Shown here one piece after another: positions 21,201-57,024 of a stretch of DNA of 64,000 nucleotides. Made by a program: the position numbers and the translations under genes. The stretch lies in assembly GCF_054482525.1 (NCBI RefSeq), contig NZ_CM137006.1; one strand, 5' to 3'. Every line of letters starts with the position of its first letter. Within the stretch, counting starts at the first letter, position 1. Below the pieces are notes generated by a model that was not told the DNA's origin, searched no databases, and saw only the letters and a program-made list of their open reading frames with translations.

Positions 21201-21337
21201 CGTGTAATGGCTGCATGAAATAAACAATAAAATATAAATAACATTATCAGCCTGCCGACGGCTTGAAGAGAGTCACAGTATCTTGTGCAACATTATTGGA
21301 AAGCGTGAGGGGCGAGGTAGCGAAGCGGAAAAATGTT

Positions 21338-21407
21338 AAAAAAAAGCCCATCGTGGGAGATGGGCAAAGACTACACACAGCAATTCGTTGTTTCACTCAG
21401 GGGATTT
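21338..21407. repeat. Left attachment-site direct repeat (duplicate of the rprA 3' end and terminator, 70 bp)
   Basis: Identical to 32979-33048: aaaaaaaagcccatcgtgggagatgggcaaagactacacacagcaattcgttgtttcactcaggggattt. Confidence 0.9.
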
Positions 21408-21424
21408 AAGTCATTGATTGATTT

Positions 21425-22054
21425 ATGGGTATGCGGTTTTTCGGCATAAACCAAATTAAGCAAGGCTTGAAAATGGACACACAAATTGCACACATATCGC
21501 ACACAAATAAAAAGGGGTATGTATGGCGCAAGCGTTATGAAAAACGCACGATTGAAATCATCCTACGCACCCGTGATAAATCAATTGCCATAAAAAGAGC
21601 GGCATCAATAACAATTCGCTATATGGAATTAAAATCACTTGACGTTCCATTTAAAGCAATGCTGGAAATGTTAAAAAAGTTTCGTGATGGTCTGATTACG
21701 TCACATGACATTGAGCGCTTAAGGTCGATTGCGATAGCTTCACAGGAAGCTCCACACGCCGCTGTAACCGCTTCGCCTATACAAAGTGTTGGCTATGATG
21801 TCAAAACCGCTCAGAAAGCCGCACAGGGGCATTCCCTTGGCGATGCTCAAAAAGTGTACTTTGGCGCCAACACCGAATGGAAAGAAAAAACCATCAAGGC
21901 TTATTCTGGTTGTATCGACCGCTTTATTTTATGGTGCGCTAATAAAAATATTCATACCGTGGAAGAAATAACGAAAGAGCATGTGATTTCATTTAAATCC
22001 AGCATGGATGAAGAAAAATTAGCCTCCATGACTAAATTTCGCATAATAATATGA
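21425..22054 (+). pseudogene. Tyrosine-integrase-like N-terminal fragment (core-binding/SAM-like region only, catalytic domain missing)
   Basis: 209-aa ORF; the segment KTIKAYSGCIDRFILWCANKNIHTVEEITKEHVISF resembles an integrase core-binding domain; no R..HxxR..Y catalytic region follows; sits next to the att repeat. Confidence 0.4.
21477..21509. repeat. Three tandem ~11-bp repeats (acacacaaatt / gcacacatatc / gcacacaaata), candidate integrase arm-type sites, left end
   Basis: Direct tandem repeats ~70 bp inside the left att repeat; a matching triplet lies ~70 bp inside the right repeat. Confidence 0.5.
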
Positions 22055-22362
22055 TTCGGGTTAGCATAACCAATACTTTTATTAAAGCCTATGTATGCAC
22101 CAATTTCTTTATACTTTAACTTAGTGAAATCTGAAATAATACTCAGTGGCTGCAATACGTTATGTCCATTGTGCGCCCCTTCATTAGCGCAAAATCCTGT
22201 ATTTGCAAACTGACCTTTATCACGCCAGATGAATCTATCAACGCCGCCACATACAGGACATGGTGTATGTTCATTTGGTTTAATATCAATTCCAAAATCA
22301 TTCATATGCACCAATGGATTCTTTTTAATATAATTATTCAAATCAGTAAAGAAATTAGCCAT
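21952..22362 (-). pseudogene. DNA primase zinc-ribbon domain fragment (Toprim and downstream domains absent)
   Basis: Motif HTPCPVCGGVDRFIWRD typical of primase Zn-ribbons; ORF stops soon after; its 3' end overlaps the convergent integrase fragment. Confidence 0.45.
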
Positions 22363-22681
22363 TATATTTGCTCCCGTATCGCCTTGCTGGATGCTTTGCA
22401 AAGAAATCAACGATATCTTGTTTGCGATACCAGATATAACCGTCTAATTCATGATGAATTTCTTGCGGAAATTCTTTAGGGTTAAAGCGTTTGGCGGCAT
22501 AAAACATTGGTTTAGTAACACCAGATAAAGCAATTGCATCATTGCCACACACAAGCCCTGTAAGTTGCACTTTCTGCGATTGTTCTTTTATCTGTGCCGC
22601 GATTAGCCTTTTATTCTCATTAACGTATTTTTCAATCTGTAGCTTACGCATTTTTTCGCGCATGTAATTTATATCGGTCAT
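22355..22681 (-). CDS. AlpA/Xis-like small DNA-binding protein, 108 aa
   Basis: C-terminal region FYAAKRFNPKEFPQE...YIWYRKQDIVDFF resembles the AlpA-family FPK...W..R..DI..W pattern. Confidence 0.45.
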   Translation of the reverse strand: MTDINYMREKMRKLQIEKYVNENKRLIAAQIKEQSQKVQLTGLVCGNDAIALSGVTKPMFYAAKRFNPKEFPQEIHHELDGYIWYRKQDIVDFFAKHPARRYGSKYNG

Positions 22682-24400: not shown

Positions 24401-24750
24401 GTAGGGTATCTCTTAGATGTATTCTGAGTGCGGTCATGGTAGGCGAGGGGAGGAATAGCGGCAAGCATTACCGGATATAGTAAGCACTACCAGCTAAAGT
24501 CTAACTAACTGTCAACAGATTGAGGCTAAAACCACTGTATGTAAATTCAATTTTAAAAATTAAAAATCATTCTGGCTTAACTAATTATGCTCAATTTAAA
24601 TTGAATCTGATAATAAAAAGAATCAATAAAATGGATTTAGTGATTTTTAGTTGGACGAAATCGTTCATTTTATGTGCATTGCTCGCTGGTGATAATTCAA
24701 CCAATCCATTCAACCTATTCGAATGGGTGGTGAATTTTTGACCGAATTAA

Positions 24751-24920
24751 ATTCACCTGAATATTCACCGAATGATTCACCTGAATCATTCAGCCCTTCA
24801 TTCACCACGAAACCCAGGCGCGGCGGGGCTTACAGGCCGATTCATTCACCTGAATATTCACCTGAATATTCACCTGAATTATTCAACCAAAAATTCACCT
24901 TCATATTCACTCATTCACCT
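24751..24920. repeat. Iteron array: two clusters of three 12-bp tandem repeats (ATTCACCTGAAT) plus degenerate copies
   Basis: Units at 24751, 24763, 24775 and at 24844, 24856, 24868 with further TTCACC copies; lies upstream of the Rep ATPase operon. Confidence 0.6.
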
Positions 24921-24957
24921 CTCTATAAATAAGCATTGGAATGCTTTTTATAGAGGT
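24921..24957. other. Long near-perfect inverted repeat (ctctataaataagcatt gg aatgctttttatagag), hairpin or operator
   Basis: About 16-bp arms with a 2-nt loop, T-run on one side; lies between the iterons and the ner-like gene. Confidence 0.4.
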
Positions 24958-25236
24958 TGATGAATGAAGGTCGTTCAAGTGAATGAACTGTGAGTTGGGT
25001 AAACCCCTAGGGGTTGGGGGTGTTGTCGATTTGTGGTAAATTCCTTCTGCCAGCGTGAAAAAGGCGCTGGTGGGGATTTGCAGCCCCAAACAAACAAAAC
25101 CATTGGCAAGGAATTGCCGATGCGCGTGCGCACGTCAGTTATGGCGGTCACGGCGAGGGAGTCGAAAGGCTCGCCAGTTTTGTTTGTTTGCTGGTACTGC
25201 AAACCTCGTCGTGATCGTCACCACGGGGATGCATGT

Positions 25237-25488
25237 ATGCAGGAAACAGACTGGCACAAAGCGGATATTCTTGCCTCTTTAAAGAAAAAGAAAATCAGCA
25301 TGGCGGGATTATCCCGTGAACATGGTTTATCAAGTAGCACGTTGCTAAATGCACTTAGTAGAGAATGGCCTAGAGGCGAATTAATTATTGCTAATGCAAT
25401 TGGTGTGTCACCTCAAGAAATATGGCCTTCTAGGTATTTTGAAAAAGATGGCTCTCCAAAAAATCGTGTGATTCGTAAACCTGTTTAA
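25237..25488 (+). CDS. Ner/Nlp (SfsB)-family HTH DNA-binding regulator, ~83 aa
   Basis: MQETDWHKADILASLKKKKISMAGLSREHGLSSSTLLNALSREWPRGELIIANAIGVSPQEIWPSRY closely resembles Ner/Nlp; I prefer the internal ATG at 25237 over the 151-aa ORF start. Confidence 0.6.
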   Translation: MQETDWHKADILASLKKKKISMAGLSREHGLSSSTLLNALSREWPRGELIIANAIGVSPQEIWPSRYFEKDGSPKNRVIRKPV

Positions 25489-25705
25489 ATAAGTCAATGC
25501 GTCTCTGATTAAAAGGGGCGCATTTTTGTTTTTACTGACTTGTTGCAATGTGGGATATGTTGCGCACGTGTGTGCGATAGTTGTTAATTGTTTTTTGTAC
25601 TAGTTAACAAATACGAATTTTCTGAGGGTGCTATTTTGGGTTTTAGCTGCGGCTTCGCCTTGCTGCCCTTCGGGCTGGTGGTGCAAGAAGAATGTTTGAA
25701 AACTT

Positions 25706-25751
25706 CCTTTTCTTTGCTTCACCAGCCCCGTAGGGGCGTGAGCGTAGCGAA
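25706..25751. repeat. 46-bp direct repeat, copy 1 (ccttttctttgcttcaccagccccgtaggggcgtgagcgtagcgaa)
   Basis: Identical to 29912-29957; contains a gcccc-gta-ggggc hairpin; ~100 bp upstream of the 383-aa gene. Confidence 0.85.
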
Positions 25752-25849: not shown

Positions 25850-27001
25850 ATGCACGAGAAAGCGCAAACAAAAATAAAAGATACTATTAGAGAAATACTA
25901 ATCACTCCAGCAATCGCTTTTACTGGTCGTGCAGGTCATTTTGATTTTTCATTATATGAAGTTTTAGCAAATGAGCTTAACAAAAGAAAGATAAAGTTTA
26001 AAATTGATAAATTATCATGTTGGATTATTTTTGATGGCGCAAAAAAACATTACTTTCAAGATAAATCAATTACTGACGCACAAGCGATAAATGATTTTGT
26101 GGATACGTTATGTAGTATTTACTGTGAAACACCTATGGATTACTCCATCGATTTTCACTTTAGAAATTTAAAAATCGATATCAACCCGATTGATTATGAG
26201 TTTGTTTCAATTAGAGCGGGTGAGGATATTGGTATTGGTTTGTTCGCTGAAAAAGAAAAGTATGCGATTGCGAGCATTAAAAAGAATGGCTATCTTTCAG
26301 GTGGTTATCCTAGCTCATTTATAAAATCGATTTTGCAAGATTTGAAAATCTTCATTTTTTTGATTAAAAGCATTAATTTGATTAAGACAGGAAAAACCAA
26401 TTTAGCATCCACGTTATTTCAATCGATGTCCGGTCATGCTGACACAATTAAGATTGATTGCGTTAATGTTAAATATCCTTGGATGAATAGCAGTGTCCAT
26501 ATTTCAGAGTCGGTAGGGAAATTTTTACACAACTTTATCTTCAATTATGAATTTGAAGAAGGCTACATTATAGAAAAAATAGATCATTCGCTTCAGCTAA
26601 TGAATGCAATAGTAAAAGATGAGTCAAAAGAAGCCTTGCGTATCAAGGCTGCAATTGATTGGTTGGTGCAATCTGAAATCACTGATGATGAAACCATGTC
26701 TTTTATTCAAATTTGCATGGGGCTTGAATCAATTTTTGGTGATGATGATTATGAGGGTGGCCTAACAAACATACTATCTGATAGATGCGCCTACTTAATA
26801 GGGAATAAAATTAAAGAGAGGAGATTTATAAAGGACACATTTAAAAAAATATATCAAGTTAGGTCAAAGATAGTGCATGGCGTAAGAAATCATTTATCAG
26901 ATGATGAATTATATTTTAGGCATTTAGCATATTCATATTTAGAGCGTTCTATTCTAAAAGAAATTCAAAATTTAGACCTGCAATCCCATCAGGCGACGTG
27001 A
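25850..27001 (+). CDS. Hypothetical protein with C-terminal HEPN-like R-x4-H-G motif, 383 aa
   Basis: AGGTGA RBS 8 nt upstream; C-terminal ...KKIYQVRSKIVHGVRNH matches the R-x4-6-H signature of HEPN RNases; strongly AT-rich. Confidence 0.4.
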   Translation: MHEKAQTKIKDTIREILITPAIAFTGRAGHFDFSLYEVLANELNKRKIKFKIDKLSCWIIFDGAKKHYFQDKSITDAQAINDFVDTLCSIYCETPMDYSIDFHFRNLKIDINPIDYEFVSIRAGEDIGIGLFAEKEKYAIASIKKNGYLSGGYPSSFIKSILQDLKIFIFLIKSINLIKTGKTNLASTLFQSMSGHADTIKIDCVNVKYPWMNSSVHISESVGKFLHNFIFNYEFEEGYIIEKIDHSLQLMNAIVKDESKEALRIKAAIDWLVQSEITDDETMSFIQICMGLESIFGDDDYEGGLTNILSDRCAYLIGNKIKERRFIKDTFKKIYQVRSKIVHGVRNHLSDDELYFRHLAYSYLERSILKEIQNLDLQSHQAT

Positions 27002-29911: not shown

Positions 29912-29957
29912 CCTTTTCTTTGCTTCACCAGCCCCGTAGGGGCGTGAGCGTAGCGAA
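29912..29957. repeat. 46-bp direct repeat, copy 2
   Basis: Identical to 25706-25751; 37 bp upstream of the tape-measure-like gene. Confidence 0.85.
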
Positions 29958-29993: not shown

Positions 29994-31982
29994 ATGGCAG
30001 GTGAAAATGCTCAATTGGGCTTTTCCGTCGATACATCGGAAGTGGAAACAGCATCAAAAAGGCTTAATGAATTAGCTAAATCAGCGCAAGGGGCGGCTGA
30101 TTCGGCTGGCAAATTATCAGATTCATTTGAGGAAAGTATGAAGGGTGTTAATTCATCAATTACTTCCAATCATCAGGCTATGCGCGAATTAACGGTAATG
30201 ATGCACGAAGCAATGTCTGGTAATTGGTCGCGCTTGCGTGGTTCTGCAATGATTATGGGCGGCGCATTGGGATTTGGTGGATTAACTAGCGGTGCGGTAG
30301 TTGGTGGAATTACGCTTGTTTCGGAAGGCATTGAATCGCTAATTGAAGGAATGCGAGAAGCTCAAAAAGCAGAAACTGAATTAAATAATTCTGCTGTAAT
30401 TACAGCAGATGTAAGCCTTTTAAATAGTGATTATGTTGATTCACTTACTATTGGTTATGAGAAATTAGGCTATTCAGCAACACAAGCAAAAGGCATGATT
30501 GCAGCGTTAAGTAATGCGGGTATGTTTGGTGATGAATTTAGTGTTGCAGGTAAACAAATTGCCGCACTATCTAAAGCGTTAGGCGGTAATTCAGACGAAC
30601 AAAAAAAATTAGCTGGTCAATTTGGTGGCTTGTATTCTGACCCGCTAGGACACGTTAACGAATTTTTCCAAGTAACAAACGGATGGATTACCAAAACCGA
30701 ACAAAACCGAATTAATGCGGCTGAACAATCGCATAATTCAGCACAAGCTGAAATGGCTATGCAAGAAGCGCTATTAGATGTTTATAAGCGTCAAACCGAT
30801 ATGCTACAGCTTAAAGCCTATTTGGAAACTAACGCCGCTACATATTCAGCCTTTCAGACGCGCGAACAATTCGGCAGCGCATGGGGTAAGGGCGAAAAAG
30901 AAAAGGCAGACGCATTTATCAAGCAATATGACGAGCGCCAGCAATCATTTAATCAGGGCGTTGAAAAGCTAAAAGGAAGCATTCACGAAACAGGACGCCA
31001 GATAAGGGAAAATGTAGAAGAATTTAATAAAGGAATGCATCCCCATAAAGTGCATACACACCACGGATTAACAGCAATTGAGAAAGCAGCTAAACAATTG
31101 GTGACCTACCAAACCCAAATTAAACAGGCTGGTTTGCAATTTGACCAGCAAATTAATTCAATTGGTGATTCAGTAAATAATGCGTGGAGTAATAAATTAT
31201 ACTCTTATTCAATGTCTTCTGACCAGAATGATTTTGCAAACCGAATTGAACAAATCAATGAACAATTCGACCGTATGCGCGAAAATGTAGACCGTTTGGC
31301 GCTGCAACATCATAAATCAATTGGTTCAAAAGAATATGTTGAAATGTTCCAAAAAATCGAATTAGGGCGCAAAAACGTATTGGCTGAAAACGTTGCTGGA
31401 TTTAATGAAATGGAGTCATTGCAGCATTCAGCGCTGGCGGGAATGGATGAGGGATGGATTAAATACCAGAAGCAGGTTAATGATGTTGCAAGCCAATCAG
31501 AGAAAGTTTTTGATACGGCTGTTGAGGGAATGACAAATTCATTAACTGATTTCTTTACAACTGGTGAGGCTGGTTGGACTAATTTTGTAAAATCAATCGC
31601 AACAATCACTGAAAAATACATGGTTCAAGATTGGATTGTTGAGCCGCTAGCAGGATTAGTAAAAGGGGGGATTAGCTCGCTATTTTCATCAAATCCATTG
31701 AGTTCAACGGCTAACACTTTTGCCGTTCCCGATATTCCAAAATTGGGCGCAACTCATTTAGGAGGCGGTCTAGGTTCGACCGCACCAGTTATCAATATCA
31801 CCATTAATGACAATGGCAACAAAGGCGGCGTTGATAGCAATGTTAGCGGCACAACAGGGCAAGTACAAAAAATGGGGGCGGCGCTAGATAAATTCCTGCA
31901 AAACTATATCAAAGAGCAAAACGTAAAATCCAACCGTCAGGGCGGGTTAAACAAAACAATGGGGAACTGGTCGACAAGATAA
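29994..31982 (+). CDS. Phage tail tape-measure protein homolog (lambda gpH-like), 662 aa, orphan
   Basis: Glycine-rich hydrophobic segment MIMGGALGFGGLTSGAVVGGITLV near the N-terminus, long helical middle, C-terminal FDTAVEGMTNSLTDFFTTGEAGWTNFVKSI and ...VINITINDNG matching, from memory, the lambda H C-terminal region; AGAGGT RBS. Confidence 0.6.
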   Translation: MAGENAQLGFSVDTSEVETASKRLNELAKSAQGAADSAGKLSDSFEESMKGVNSSITSNHQAMRELTVMMHEAMSGNWSRLRGSAMIMGGALGFGGLTSGAVVGGITLVSEGIESLIEGMREAQKAETELNNSAVITADVSLLNSDYVDSLTIGYEKLGYSATQAKGMIAALSNAGMFGDEFSVAGKQIAALSKALGGNSDEQKKLAGQFGGLYSDPLGHVNEFFQVTNGWITKTEQNRINAAEQSHNSAQAEMAMQEALLDVYKRQTDMLQLKAYLETNAATYSAFQTREQFGSAWGKGEKEKADAFIKQYDERQQSFNQGVEKLKGSIHETGRQIRENVEEFNKGMHPHKVHTHHGLTAIEKAAKQLVTYQTQIKQAGLQFDQQINSIGDSVNNAWSNKLYSYSMSSDQNDFANRIEQINEQFDRMRENVDRLALQHHKSIGSKEYVEMFQKIELGRKNVLAENVAGFNEMESLQHSALAGMDEGWIKYQKQVNDVASQSEKVFDTAVEGMTNSLTDFFTTGEAGWTNFVKSIATITEKYMVQDWIVEPLAGLVKGGISSLFSSNPLSSTANTFAVPDIPKLGATHLGGGLGSTAPVINITINDNGNKGGVDSNVSGTTGQVQKMGAALDKFLQNYIKEQNVKSNRQGGLNKTMGNWSTR

Positions 31983-32909: not shown

Positions 32910-32978
32910 ATCGCATACCTTTAATGACCTAATTTCTTCAAGCCCCTGCATTGCTGCGTTTGTCGTGATTTTCGGCAT

Positions 32979-33048
32979 AAAAAAAAGCCCATCGTGGGAG
33001 ATGGGCAAAGACTACACACAGCAATTCGTTGTTTCACTCAGGGGATTT
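32979..33048. repeat. Right attachment-site direct repeat (3' 70 nt of intact rprA)
   Basis: Identical to 21338-21407. Confidence 0.9.
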
Positions 33049-33084
33049 CCATGCTTATAAATCAATATGTTGATTTATAACCGT
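32979..33084 (-). ncRNA. rprA: Small regulatory RNA RprA (activator of rpoS translation)
   Basis: Minus-strand sequence ACGGTTATAAATCAACATATTGATTTATAAGCATGGAAATCCCCTGAGTGAAACAACGAATTGCTGTGTGTAGTCTTTGCCCATCTCCCACGATGGGCTTTTTTTT matches RprA from memory, including the intrinsic terminator; lies between ydiK and ydiL. Confidence 0.85.
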
Positions 33085-38522: not shown

Positions 38523-38747
38523 TCCTGACTTAATGCCGCAATTTCGCCAAATCGACCTGGATTAACCTCCGTCCAGGTTCGATGACCTTCTTAATACTGC
38601 TTATCTACCCGCCTGATATTGTTCAAAAATAATACTAATCGCAGTTTGTGTTAAAACGGCGGGTTAGCTTTATGAGATTATTCTTATCGCCCCTTCAAGA
38701 GCTAAGCCACTGAGAGTGCCGGAGATAAGCGCCGGATGGGGTAGAAA

Positions 38748-38788
38748 CCCTTAAGCCTGTGTCGCACAGACTTAAGGGTTTTCTTATT
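38748..38788 (+). terminator. Rho-independent terminator-like hairpin in the ydiH-sufA intergenic region
   Basis: cccttaagcctgtg...cacagacttaaggg stem followed by ttttcttattt. Confidence 0.5.
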
Positions 38789-56452: not shown

Positions 56453-56758
56453 TCAGGCGAGTTTTGCCTCATTGATTTGACTCAGTGGCTCATTGACATC
56501 GAAAACTTTGGCGACAACTTCCTCAACGCCGAGATTTTTCAGTCGGGCAGTATGTTTTTCCAGATAGGCAAGGGCGCTTTTTTCATCAGTGAAAAGGTAG
56601 ATCCCACCGGCTTCGTGGTTCTTTTCACTTTCTGTCCATACCTTCCACAGAAAACCAGGTTCCTGATTAATCGACTCAGCAAGTGGTTTAAGCTGCTCAG
56701 CCATTGCGTCGCCAAATGGGCCATTAAAAGCAAAATGAAGTTGTAACAAAGTTGCCAT
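56453..56758 (-). CDS. ydhR: Putative monooxygenase-like protein YdhR, 101 aa
   Basis: 101-aa ORF; synteny. Confidence 0.85.
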
Positions 56759-56866
56759 AGCGATTCTCCTTCTGATAACGCATACGAAGACAGTGTAAAT
56801 CTTTTAACGTATTGGATACAGAGAAGAAACAGAGGGAAAAAAGGAGAAGACCAGATTAAGAAAATC

Positions 56867-56943
56867 TGGTGCGTCCGAGTGGACTCGAACCACCGACCCC
56901 CACCATGTCAAGGTGGTGCTCTAACCAACTGAGCTACGGACGC
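56867..56943 (-). tRNA. valV: tRNA-Val (GAC)
   Basis: Reverse complement reads GCGTCCGTAGCTCAGTTGGTTAGAGCACCACCTTGACATGGTGGGGGTCGGTGGTTCGAGTCCACTCGGACGCACCA, a cloverleaf with anticodon GAC and encoded CCA. Confidence 0.95.
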
Positions 56944-56947
56944 AGGA

Positions 56948-57024
56948 TGGTGCGTTCAATTGGACTCGAACCAACGACCCCCACCATGTCAAGGTGGTGC
57001 TCTAACCAACTGAGCTATGAACGC
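56948..57024 (-). tRNA. valW: tRNA-Val (GAC), second tandem copy
   Basis: Reverse complement reads GCGTTCATAGCTCAGTTGGTTAGAGCACCACCTTGACATGGTGGGGGTCGTTGGTTCGAGTCCAATTGAACGCACCA. Confidence 0.95.

Follow-up and report, generated by a model that had tools for sequence, protein, structure and literature searches.

A probable C4-type antisense RNA module with an upstream target in the leader of a ner-like gene

We analysed the region upstream of a ner-like gene in a stretch of 64,000 nucleotides (nt) of DNA from contig NZ_CM137006.1 of assembly GCF_054482525.1 (hereafter the window), which shows 100% identity to Escherichia coli PCN033. The gene lies in a low-G+C island and is preceded by a perfect 14-nt inverted repeat, whose arms, caaacaaacaaaac at 25087-25100 and gttttgtttgtttg at 25177-25190, can be read directly with 76 nt between them, just as the initial annotation of this DNA had described. 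The repeat exceeds chance expectation: the window holds four inverted repeats with a 12-nt exact seed no more than 150 nt apart, this pair alone has a long spacer, and no further perfect copy of the 14-mer pattern is present within the 64 kb. Its 3' end lies 46 nt before the ner ATG at 25237. Folding both strands of 25080-25200 as RNA, a check put forward with the initial annotation, gave the more stable structure on the + strand (-55.5 kcal/mol, z = -5.35, vs -45.6 kcal/mol, z = -3.32, on the - strand). As set out below, comparison with related elements indicates that the element is probably an antisense-RNA module of the C4/CI type with an upstream a1/b1 target, and that the repeat reflects the RNA-RNA pairing b1:b'.

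On the + strand, positions 25137-25225 match the Rfam family of C4 antisense RNAs (RF01695) with 65.8 bits (gathering score 45; E = 1.6e-10), and the match spans the full model (1-87 of 87). Relatives of the element, which score 61.2-69.9 bits with the same model, were gathered by BLAST (S10, FREC5, C5), by searching viral and metagenome contigs with a gapped DNA pattern and, as a third route that is independent of the RNA sequence, by similarity of the Ner protein; a scan of genome contigs with a 16-nt pattern was unspecific, most of its 120 loci being chance matches and only those of Pantoea and Dickeya real. Across 13 distinct sequences, 99.3% of the cells of the C4 fold are paired, vs 81% in shuffles. 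Changes on both sides were seen for 13 of the 23 stem pairs, none of 500 shuffles was equally good, and in a control in which the partner was slid by 1-3 columns no more than 44% remained paired. A model of our own (R1) also detects the C4 RNA of the window, and gives 74-78 bits for loci outside its training set and 62.6 for P4. The stem is followed by NCCA in all relatives, as by A-CCA in the window. PGAP/RefSeq does not annotate the gene for the C4-like RNA in any carrier genome whose annotation was examined.

The 3' arm of the repeat coincides with the loop of the second hairpin of this RNA, b' in the C4 RNAs of phages P1 and P7, because the Rfam alignment puts the arm there. Among RNAs with 93-96% identity outside the loop, identity within it is 31-80%; L136 and the window type, for example, share 31% in the loop and 96% in the remaining RNA. 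Such hypervariability has the signature of a specificity determinant, and we liken it to the heteroimmunity differences between P1 and P7 that Citron and Schuster reportedly described in 1990.

The 5' arm, b1, is a perfect complement of the loop, so that b1:b' comprises 14 base pairs (bp) in the window, where a second pairing, a1:a', provides another 7 bp. Both pairings change in step among the relatives. Besides the window pair (CAAACAAACAAAAC / GUUUUGUUUGUUUG), b1 and b' read CUAAUGACG / UGUCAUUAG in S10, CUAACACC / GGUGUUAG in L133, AUGAUACCAA / UUGGUAUUGU in L136, CCAUGUUUCC / GGAAACAUGG in Dickeya, GAUUCAUCAA / UUGAUGAAUC in L203, CGUUCAU / AUGAACG in L204 and, with one mismatch, GCAAAUUACC / GGUUAUUUGC in C5 (L209); there are at least eight specificities overall. 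Likewise, four a1/a' variants switch together: UUUGCAG/CUGCAAA in the window type, GUCGCAG/CUGCGAA in L203, L208 and ASU11, UUAGCAG/CUGCUAA in L209, and GUGAGAA/UUCUCAC in P4. When nine loops were paired with nine leaders in a duplex matrix, the diagonal had a mean of -11.3 kcal/mol vs -6.7 +/- 2.1 kcal/mol off the diagonal, and the own leader was the best partner for 6/9 loops. L002 and L127, which have one common specificity, ranked their own leader second, beaten only by each other's, and the loop of L126 paired slightly better with the leader of L133 than with its own (-11.5 vs -11.2 kcal/mol). Types beyond those of the matrix occur in L203, L204, L208 and L209. Comparison of these sequences shows the b1:b' and a1:a' complementarity to be maintained by selection. 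The covariation analysis of related elements that the initial annotation had proposed was thus carried out, with the result that the C4 stems covary and b1/b' complementarity is kept.

The region between the putative promoter and the C4-like RNA has a layout of its own (Table 1). Conservation between the window and the 81%-identical S10 island starts at TGTGGTAAATTC / TGTGATAGATTC, and in other relatives a -10-like hexamer is found 7-9 nt upstream of the first leader hairpin. The promoter consensus scan missed the putative extended -10 element of the window because its -35 is weak. A hairpin at the position of leader hairpin P1, with a CAAAAU-like loop and different stem sequences, is present in L127, L133, L126, L131, L137, L033, L203-L208 and L209, and b1 always lies 1-7 nt 3' of hairpin P2 in the elements compared. 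At hairpin P3, pairs of the otherwise near-identical leader of L128 differ in a compensatory manner (G-C to A-U and U-G to U-A), and unrelated hairpins occupy this position in S10, L127, L133, Dickeya and L203-L208. Two hairpins, the second of which holds a1, directly 5' of b1 make up the layout termed c4-a1b1; the stems vary between relatives and the pairing is kept.

Table 1. Features of the leader, the C4-like RNA and the ner-like gene in the window
Feature	Positions	Strand	Basis or remark
Putative extended -10, TGgTAAATT; predicted start ~25049	25034-25042	+	inferred from sequence
Leader hairpin P1, stem GCCAGCGU / GCGCUGGU, loop GAAAAAG	25049-25071	+	predicted fold
Leader hairpin P2, GGGG-AUUUGCAG-CCCC, a1 displayed in loop	25072-25087	+	predicted fold
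a1, UUUGCAG, in hairpin P2 loop	25077-25083	+	complementary to a' CUGCAAA
b1, upstream target, CAAACAAACAAAAC, 5' arm of repeat	25087-25100	+	perfect complement of hairpin-2 loop
Leader hairpin P3, CAUUGGCAA-GGAA-UUGCCGAUG	25101-25122	+	predicted folds
Spacer from hairpin P3 to C4-like RNA, with palindrome cgtgcgcacg	25123-25141	+	sequence
C4 closing stem	25142-25158 / 25204-25220	+	Rfam alignment
C4 hairpin 1, GAAA loop	25159-25172	+	Rfam alignment
C4 hairpin 2, GCCAG-UUUUGUUUGUUUG-CUGGU	25173-25195	+	Rfam alignment
b', hairpin-2 recognition loop, GUUUUGUUUGUUUG, 3' arm of repeat	25177-25190	+	Rfam alignment (25178-25190 in loop)
a', single-stranded junction CUGCAAA	25197-25203	+	unpaired J region of Rfam consensus
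A-CCA 3' end	25220-25223	+	sequence
Predicted mature RNA, 81 nt	~25143-25223	+	ends inferred from the analogous RNase P cuts in P1 C4 and P4 CI RNA
Shine-Dalgarno sequence GGGGA	25225-25229	+	begins 2 nt after A-CCA tail
ner-like gene, 83 amino acids (aa)	25237 (ATG) to 25488 (stop)	+	PGAP: helix-turn-helix protein
Intrinsic terminator after ner, 11-bp stem then TTTGTTTTT	25496-25534 (stem region 25496-25524 plus T-run)	+	terminator scan

These results redraw the element that had been proposed. The initial annotation took 25087-25190 as a unit of ~105 nt closed by the repeat, whereas the module that emerges from the comparison consists of the leader (~25049-25141) and the C4-family RNA (25137-25225). 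The supposed 14-bp closing stem is instead the pairing of the antisense loop b' with its upstream target b1, which competes with the C4 fold and does not enclose it. Of the three interior features that had been pointed out, all are present, and only the ggcaa-ggaa-ttgcc hairpin at 25101-25122 is conserved as a structure: the palindrome cgtgcgcacg (25126-25135) is absent from the close relative L136, and the hairpin ggcgag...ctcgcc (25153-25158 / 25171-25176) is displaced by the covariation-supported C4 fold. The suggestion of a cis-regulatory leader or a small RNA holds in the sense that the + strand carries a leader element of the ner-like gene containing a predicted discrete small RNA, albeit with different borders.

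The protein encoded downstream matches the NCBIfam model SfsB (NF007670) with E = 3.4e-28, which is under the curated cutoff, and phrog_769, 'transcriptional repressor', with E = 1.8e-30. Ner homologues of ~62% identity that were found by protein alone also have a C4-like RNA directly upstream, and the sequence comparison shows the linkage of the C4-like RNA to ner to be conserved across these loci. The terminator 3' of ner closes the leader-C4-ner transcription unit.

This architecture can be compared with that of known immunity systems. The a' and b' sequences of c4 RNAs pair with a1/b1 upstream and a2/b2 downstream (Weinberg 2010, PMC2864571, Additional file 1), and the c4-a1b1 motif comprises two hairpins that encompass a1, directly 5' of b1 (PMC2864571). 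In P4, CI RNA arises by processing of the leader and brings about premature termination by pairing with seqA and seqC, and IsrK is a structural homologue of SeqA RNA (PMC4825925). Searching the P4 genome with Rfam, we found that CI RNA matches the C4 model with 74.9 bits and that the seqA region upstream matches isrK (60.8 bits) and c4-a1b1 (44.1 bits); because the P4 immunity region matches the same Rfam families, we regard the module described here as a homologue of the P4/P1 immunity core. Termination at t1 of P4 is reported to need both CI RNA and seqA (Briani et al. 2000).

Like the P4 immunity region (PLE, seqA with t1, CI RNA = seqB, and seqC), the present module has, in the same order, a putative promoter, a two-hairpin leader with an upstream site and a C4-family RNA, apparently processed, within an untranslated leader; it is likewise part of a small integrative element with primase/helicase functions, and its loop specificity varies between related elements. 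P4 differs in having the downstream target seqC (b2 9 bp, a2 7 bp), a loop with the anti-Shine-Dalgarno-like sequence UCCU and a seqA that is followed by an intrinsic terminator, and the downstream gene is a Ner-like repressor here as opposed to the left-operon genes in P4. With the C4 RNAs of P1 and P7 the element shares the three-stem fold, the placement of a' (junction) and of b' (hairpin-2 loop), a hairpin that holds a1 in its loop directly 5' of b1, and the tRNA-like 3' NCCA for RNase P. The C4 RNA of P1, however, blocks the icd/ant ribosome-binding site via a2/b2, whereas the module here is without a2/b2 and the controlled gene, if any, would be ner. Finally, as in IsrK / STnc1160 of Salmonella Gifsy-1 and the lambdoid isrK-C4 pairs (phage ASU11), an a1b1-type element is followed by a C4-type processed RNA in one transcript, and a' is identical or nearly so to that of the IsrK-C4 prophage pairs. 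IsrK, though, ends at an intrinsic terminator and is a separate short RNA that activates translation of the downstream orf45/anrP, unlike the leader here, which has neither terminator nor a2/b2. We note in passing that the isrK and C4 pair of phage ASU11 (L004, 2361-3023) lies inside an open reading frame (ORF) annotated as 'putative antirepressor' or 'ash family protein', as do the C4-like matches in E. coli (H11-H30); those ORFs are probably over-calls across non-coding RNA genes. A search of the literature for C4 together with Ner, or for rprA-inserted satellites, found nothing relevant.

The leader-C4-ner arrangement suggests the following sequence of events. A transcript starting at ~25049 would carry hairpins P1 and P2 (a1), b1, hairpin P3 and the ~81-nt C4-like RNA, followed directly by the ner ribosome-binding site. 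RNase P would then cut the C4-like RNA out of the leader at its tRNA-like stem and A-CCA end. C4 and CI RNAs are RNase P substrates (PMC5499578), and, by analogy, release of the present RNA from its leader appears plausible, the sequence prerequisite (stem and NCCA) being present and kept. The released RNA would bind a1/b1 on new leaders, or a'b' would pair in cis in the precursor, and this pairing would lower the output of the C4-ner transcript, with the hypervariable b1/b' setting an element-specific immunity type. That the module is an antisense-RNA system with its own upstream target is, as stated, the probable reading; that its read-out is autoregulatory, lowering the output of its own transcript, is a more tentative proposal to which we give somewhat less than even weight.

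Several observations weigh against this picture. On the leader, the Rfam model c4-a1b1 (RF03163) gave no match at E <= 10, and isrK (RF01394) reached 10.6 bits (E = 2.6), below threshold; for comparison, c4-a1b1 and isrK score 47.9 and 75 in Pantoea, and the values for P4 are those given above. In the Ner-linked subgroup, which comprises the window, L136, S10, L127, L133, Dickeya, L203-L208 and C5, the loop paired no better with its own 93 downstream nt than with foreign ones in the 6/6 members included in the matrix (ranks 3-9 of 9), so that no a2/b2 is apparent there, whereas in the same matrix the cognate downstream duplex came first in 3/3 classical elements, with an a2 of 7 bp and a b2 overlapping GGAG. 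No UCC/CUCC anti-Shine-Dalgarno motif was found in the Ner-linked loops, although all classical loops have it. The terminator scan found none on the + strand after b1, and hairpin P3 is followed by CGCGUGC rather than a U-tract, in contrast to the classical elements, which have at this position an intrinsic terminator ending ...GCGUCUUUUUU. Comparing the two leader folds by prediction, we saw no consistent difference in the accessibility of the ner start. Moreover, sequence comparison by itself does not distinguish an action in trans from one confined to cis.

Candidate targets other than b1 were also considered. A second site complementary to b' was not found on either strand of the island in any relative. 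Isolated A-rich matches to the loop, such as those at 30580 and 25865, were rejected as targets, none being conserved in relatives. A site at the ner start, UAUGCAGGAAACAGAC (25235-25250), plausible at first sight, was rejected for want of covariation with the loop in relatives; Gln-Asp codons or the Shine-Dalgarno sequence account for its GCAGGA motif. A helix between the spacer 5' of the C4-like RNA and the ner start was not significant (cognate -13.1 vs non-cognate -10.7 +/- 3.2 kcal/mol, with shuffled spacers often equal).

With neither a2/b2 nor an anti-Shine-Dalgarno motif, the classical read-outs (blocking of a ribosome-binding site and seqC-dependent termination) are therefore missing, and intrinsic termination of the P4 t1 type cannot be assumed for a hairpin P3 that has no U-tract. 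Since there is no downstream target, control would run purely through the upstream site. The element thus belongs to the known C4/CI family, and the Ner-linked subgroup without a downstream target is a modest, testable variation on it. It is conceivable, although we would not favour it at present, that the Ner-linked C4 modules form a distinct functional subclass for which the own leader is the sole target, without a2/b2, anti-Shine-Dalgarno loop or leader terminator. If so, b1/b' would be a self-recognition code that endows every small island or satellite with an immunity type of its own and sets the level of a Cro/Ner-like switch protein, and the read-out, which would differ from the P1 and P4 paradigms, might be termination by Rho, cleavage of the ~21-bp composite duplex by an RNase or control of the processing by RNase P.

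Since the same pairing can form in cis, and the C4 and b1:b' folds are near-isoenergetic, a cis-acting bistable leader is a live rival to the antisense-RNA module, if an unlikely one. Here, the exchange between the C4 fold and the a1b1:a'b' fold would by itself set ner expression or mRNA stability, with no RNA acting in trans. For 25049-25236 the two folds are indeed isoenergetic (C4 fold -86.5 kcal/mol, b1:b' fold -86.2 kcal/mol), and they lie within 3.5 kcal/mol of each other in 7/9 leaders; the one complementary site that is conserved belongs to the transcript itself; and c4 RNAs may at times be cis elements (Weinberg 2010, PMC2864571). A switch of this kind does not, however, account well for the conservation of the stem and A-CCA 3' end required for RNase P, and the loop and b1 change much faster than the other stems, which fits discrimination between self and non-self better. 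The equal accessibility of the ner start in both predicted folds counts against it too. Less probable again is regulation in trans of a target not linked to the C4-like RNA, such as a site of the a2/b2 type on another island or a helper phage, with a1/b1 as competitor or decoy. A decoy role of a1/b1 was proposed for P1 (Citron and Schuster, in PMC2864571), many C4 RNAs of lambdoid prophages have the identical a', and the island is satellite-like, having a helicase-primase and a tape-measure fragment without capsid genes. As noted, however, no second complement of b' was found on either strand of the island in any relative. When 2.9 million viral contigs were scanned for a2 with a window-type b2 behind it, the island itself and chance A-rich matches alone came up, so that a helper-phage target was rejected; the Ner-linked loops, in addition, are without the anti-Shine-Dalgarno motif of classical b' loops.

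Two readings that dispense with an antisense RNA fare far worse. A DNA-level element, either a cruciform or an operator for the Ner-like or a replication protein, had been offered in the initial annotation, and proteins can bind at perfect inverted repeats, the next gene encodes a repressor, and just upstream lies an ATTCACC repeat array. The arms are, however, wholly different between islands with close Ner proteins, one arm sits inside the covariation-supported RNA fold, and the G-U wobbles in the b1:b' pairing of L136 and S10, of which there are many in the stems as well, would be A-C mismatches in DNA or the other strand. Because such wobble pairs work only in + strand RNA, they argue against an operator or cruciform, which we hold to be very improbable. 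Hardest of all to credit is that the region codes for the N-terminal part of a 151-aa ORF (25033-25488). Upstream of the ner ATG, no stop interrupts the frame over 234 nt in the window and over 126-243 nt in 5/9 relatives checked, yet an in-frame stop occurs 30-33 nt upstream of the ATG in L079, L203, L204 and L208, the substitutions in the upstream part are compensatory changes of RNA stems, PGAP calls the 83-aa protein (from 25237 in the window) in all annotated carrier genomes examined, and the predicted transcript start lies after the GTG of the ORF. On the sequence evidence the 151-aa ORF is an artefact that is not conserved, in agreement with the doubt that had been voiced about its first start.

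Read as a C4-type module, the locus gives a precise annotation to an RNA gene left out by PGAP and removes a spurious 151-aa ORF, and a striking inverted repeat is explained as an antisense loop and its target. The comparative set, with its many loop/target specificities (at least eight) in RNAs that are otherwise 93-96% identical, amounts to a natural experiment on RNA-RNA specificity. Furthermore, the Ner-linked subgroup, with its upstream target only, offers a simple system for asking what a1/b1 (seqA) does, a question since the P1 work, and the module marks the regulatory switch region of little-known small primase-helicase islands inserted at rprA and tRNA genes.

The island itself measures ~11.6 kb, has a low G+C content (32-45%), lies between ydiL and ydiK, and occurs in 5/5426 complete E. 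coli genomes. On either side of it lies a copy of the small RNA gene rprA, one full and one partial, at 21336-21456 and 32977-33084, both on the - strand (Rfam RprA scores 81.4 and 118.8 bits). Two RprA matches flanking the low-G+C stretch imply that the island integrated at the rprA 3' end, duplicating part of the gene. Leftward genes encode AlpA-like proteins and a helicase-primase-like ATPase (phrog_3228), and on the right the leader-C4-ner unit is accompanied by small ORFs and by genes for a HEPN protein and for a protein with a tape-measure C-terminal domain. At 21425-22410, ~2 kb is missing relative to the S10 island, namely a GIY-YIG gene and the greater part of both the integrase and the toprim primase; what is left over is a 209-aa N-terminal fragment of the integrase overlapping a 152-aa zinc-binding fragment of the primase. 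These fragments indicate that this copy of the island is defective and probably immobile. Compared with a P4-like satellite, the island has an integrase fragment, a primase zinc-binding fragment and the helicase-primase-like ATPase without the hijacking genes sid, psu or delta, which are not annotated and have no match among the island proteins; epsilon is not annotated either. A Ner-linked C4 module also occurs in a different setting, at 3960-4419 of L209 (E. coli C5), where the surrounding island is decayed, lies next to tRNA-Asn and contains an IS3 and two integrase genes, and the module therefore travels between different backbones.

Other features of the island deserve mention. Between the divergent replication operon and the C4-ner unit, 24729-24925 holds a dense ATTCACC(TGAAT) array with a 12-nt period, in which ATTCACC has 10 exact copies in 191 nt, vs ~8.6 expected across all 64 kb; it may serve as an iteron-type origin or as a series of operators. 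A 34-nt G+C-rich element, TTCACCAGCCCCGTAGGGGCGTGAGCGTAGCGAA, which contains a CCCC-GUA-GGGG hairpin, is found in two identical copies on the + strand, at 25718-25751 and 29924-29957. The former lies ~100 nt upstream of the HEPN gene and is kept in the S10 island, the latter lies ~40 nt before the tape-measure-domain gene, and the element may be a shared promoter, an activator site or an RNA signal. The HEPN-domain protein (25850-27001, 383 aa) has no PADLOC, PHROG or NCBIfam match, and PADLOC returned no matches for the island cargo proteins; the 662-aa protein at 29994-31982 has a lambda-type tape-measure C-terminal domain and is accompanied by no other virion genes in the island. Together, they are odd cargo for a small primase-helicase element. 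The remaining Rfam matches in the window, to rydB and to the antisense RNA HPnc0260, which overlaps two tRNA genes on the opposite strand, lie at 56742-56905 (+), 56870-57024 (-) and 38689-38749 (+) and look ordinary chromosomal.

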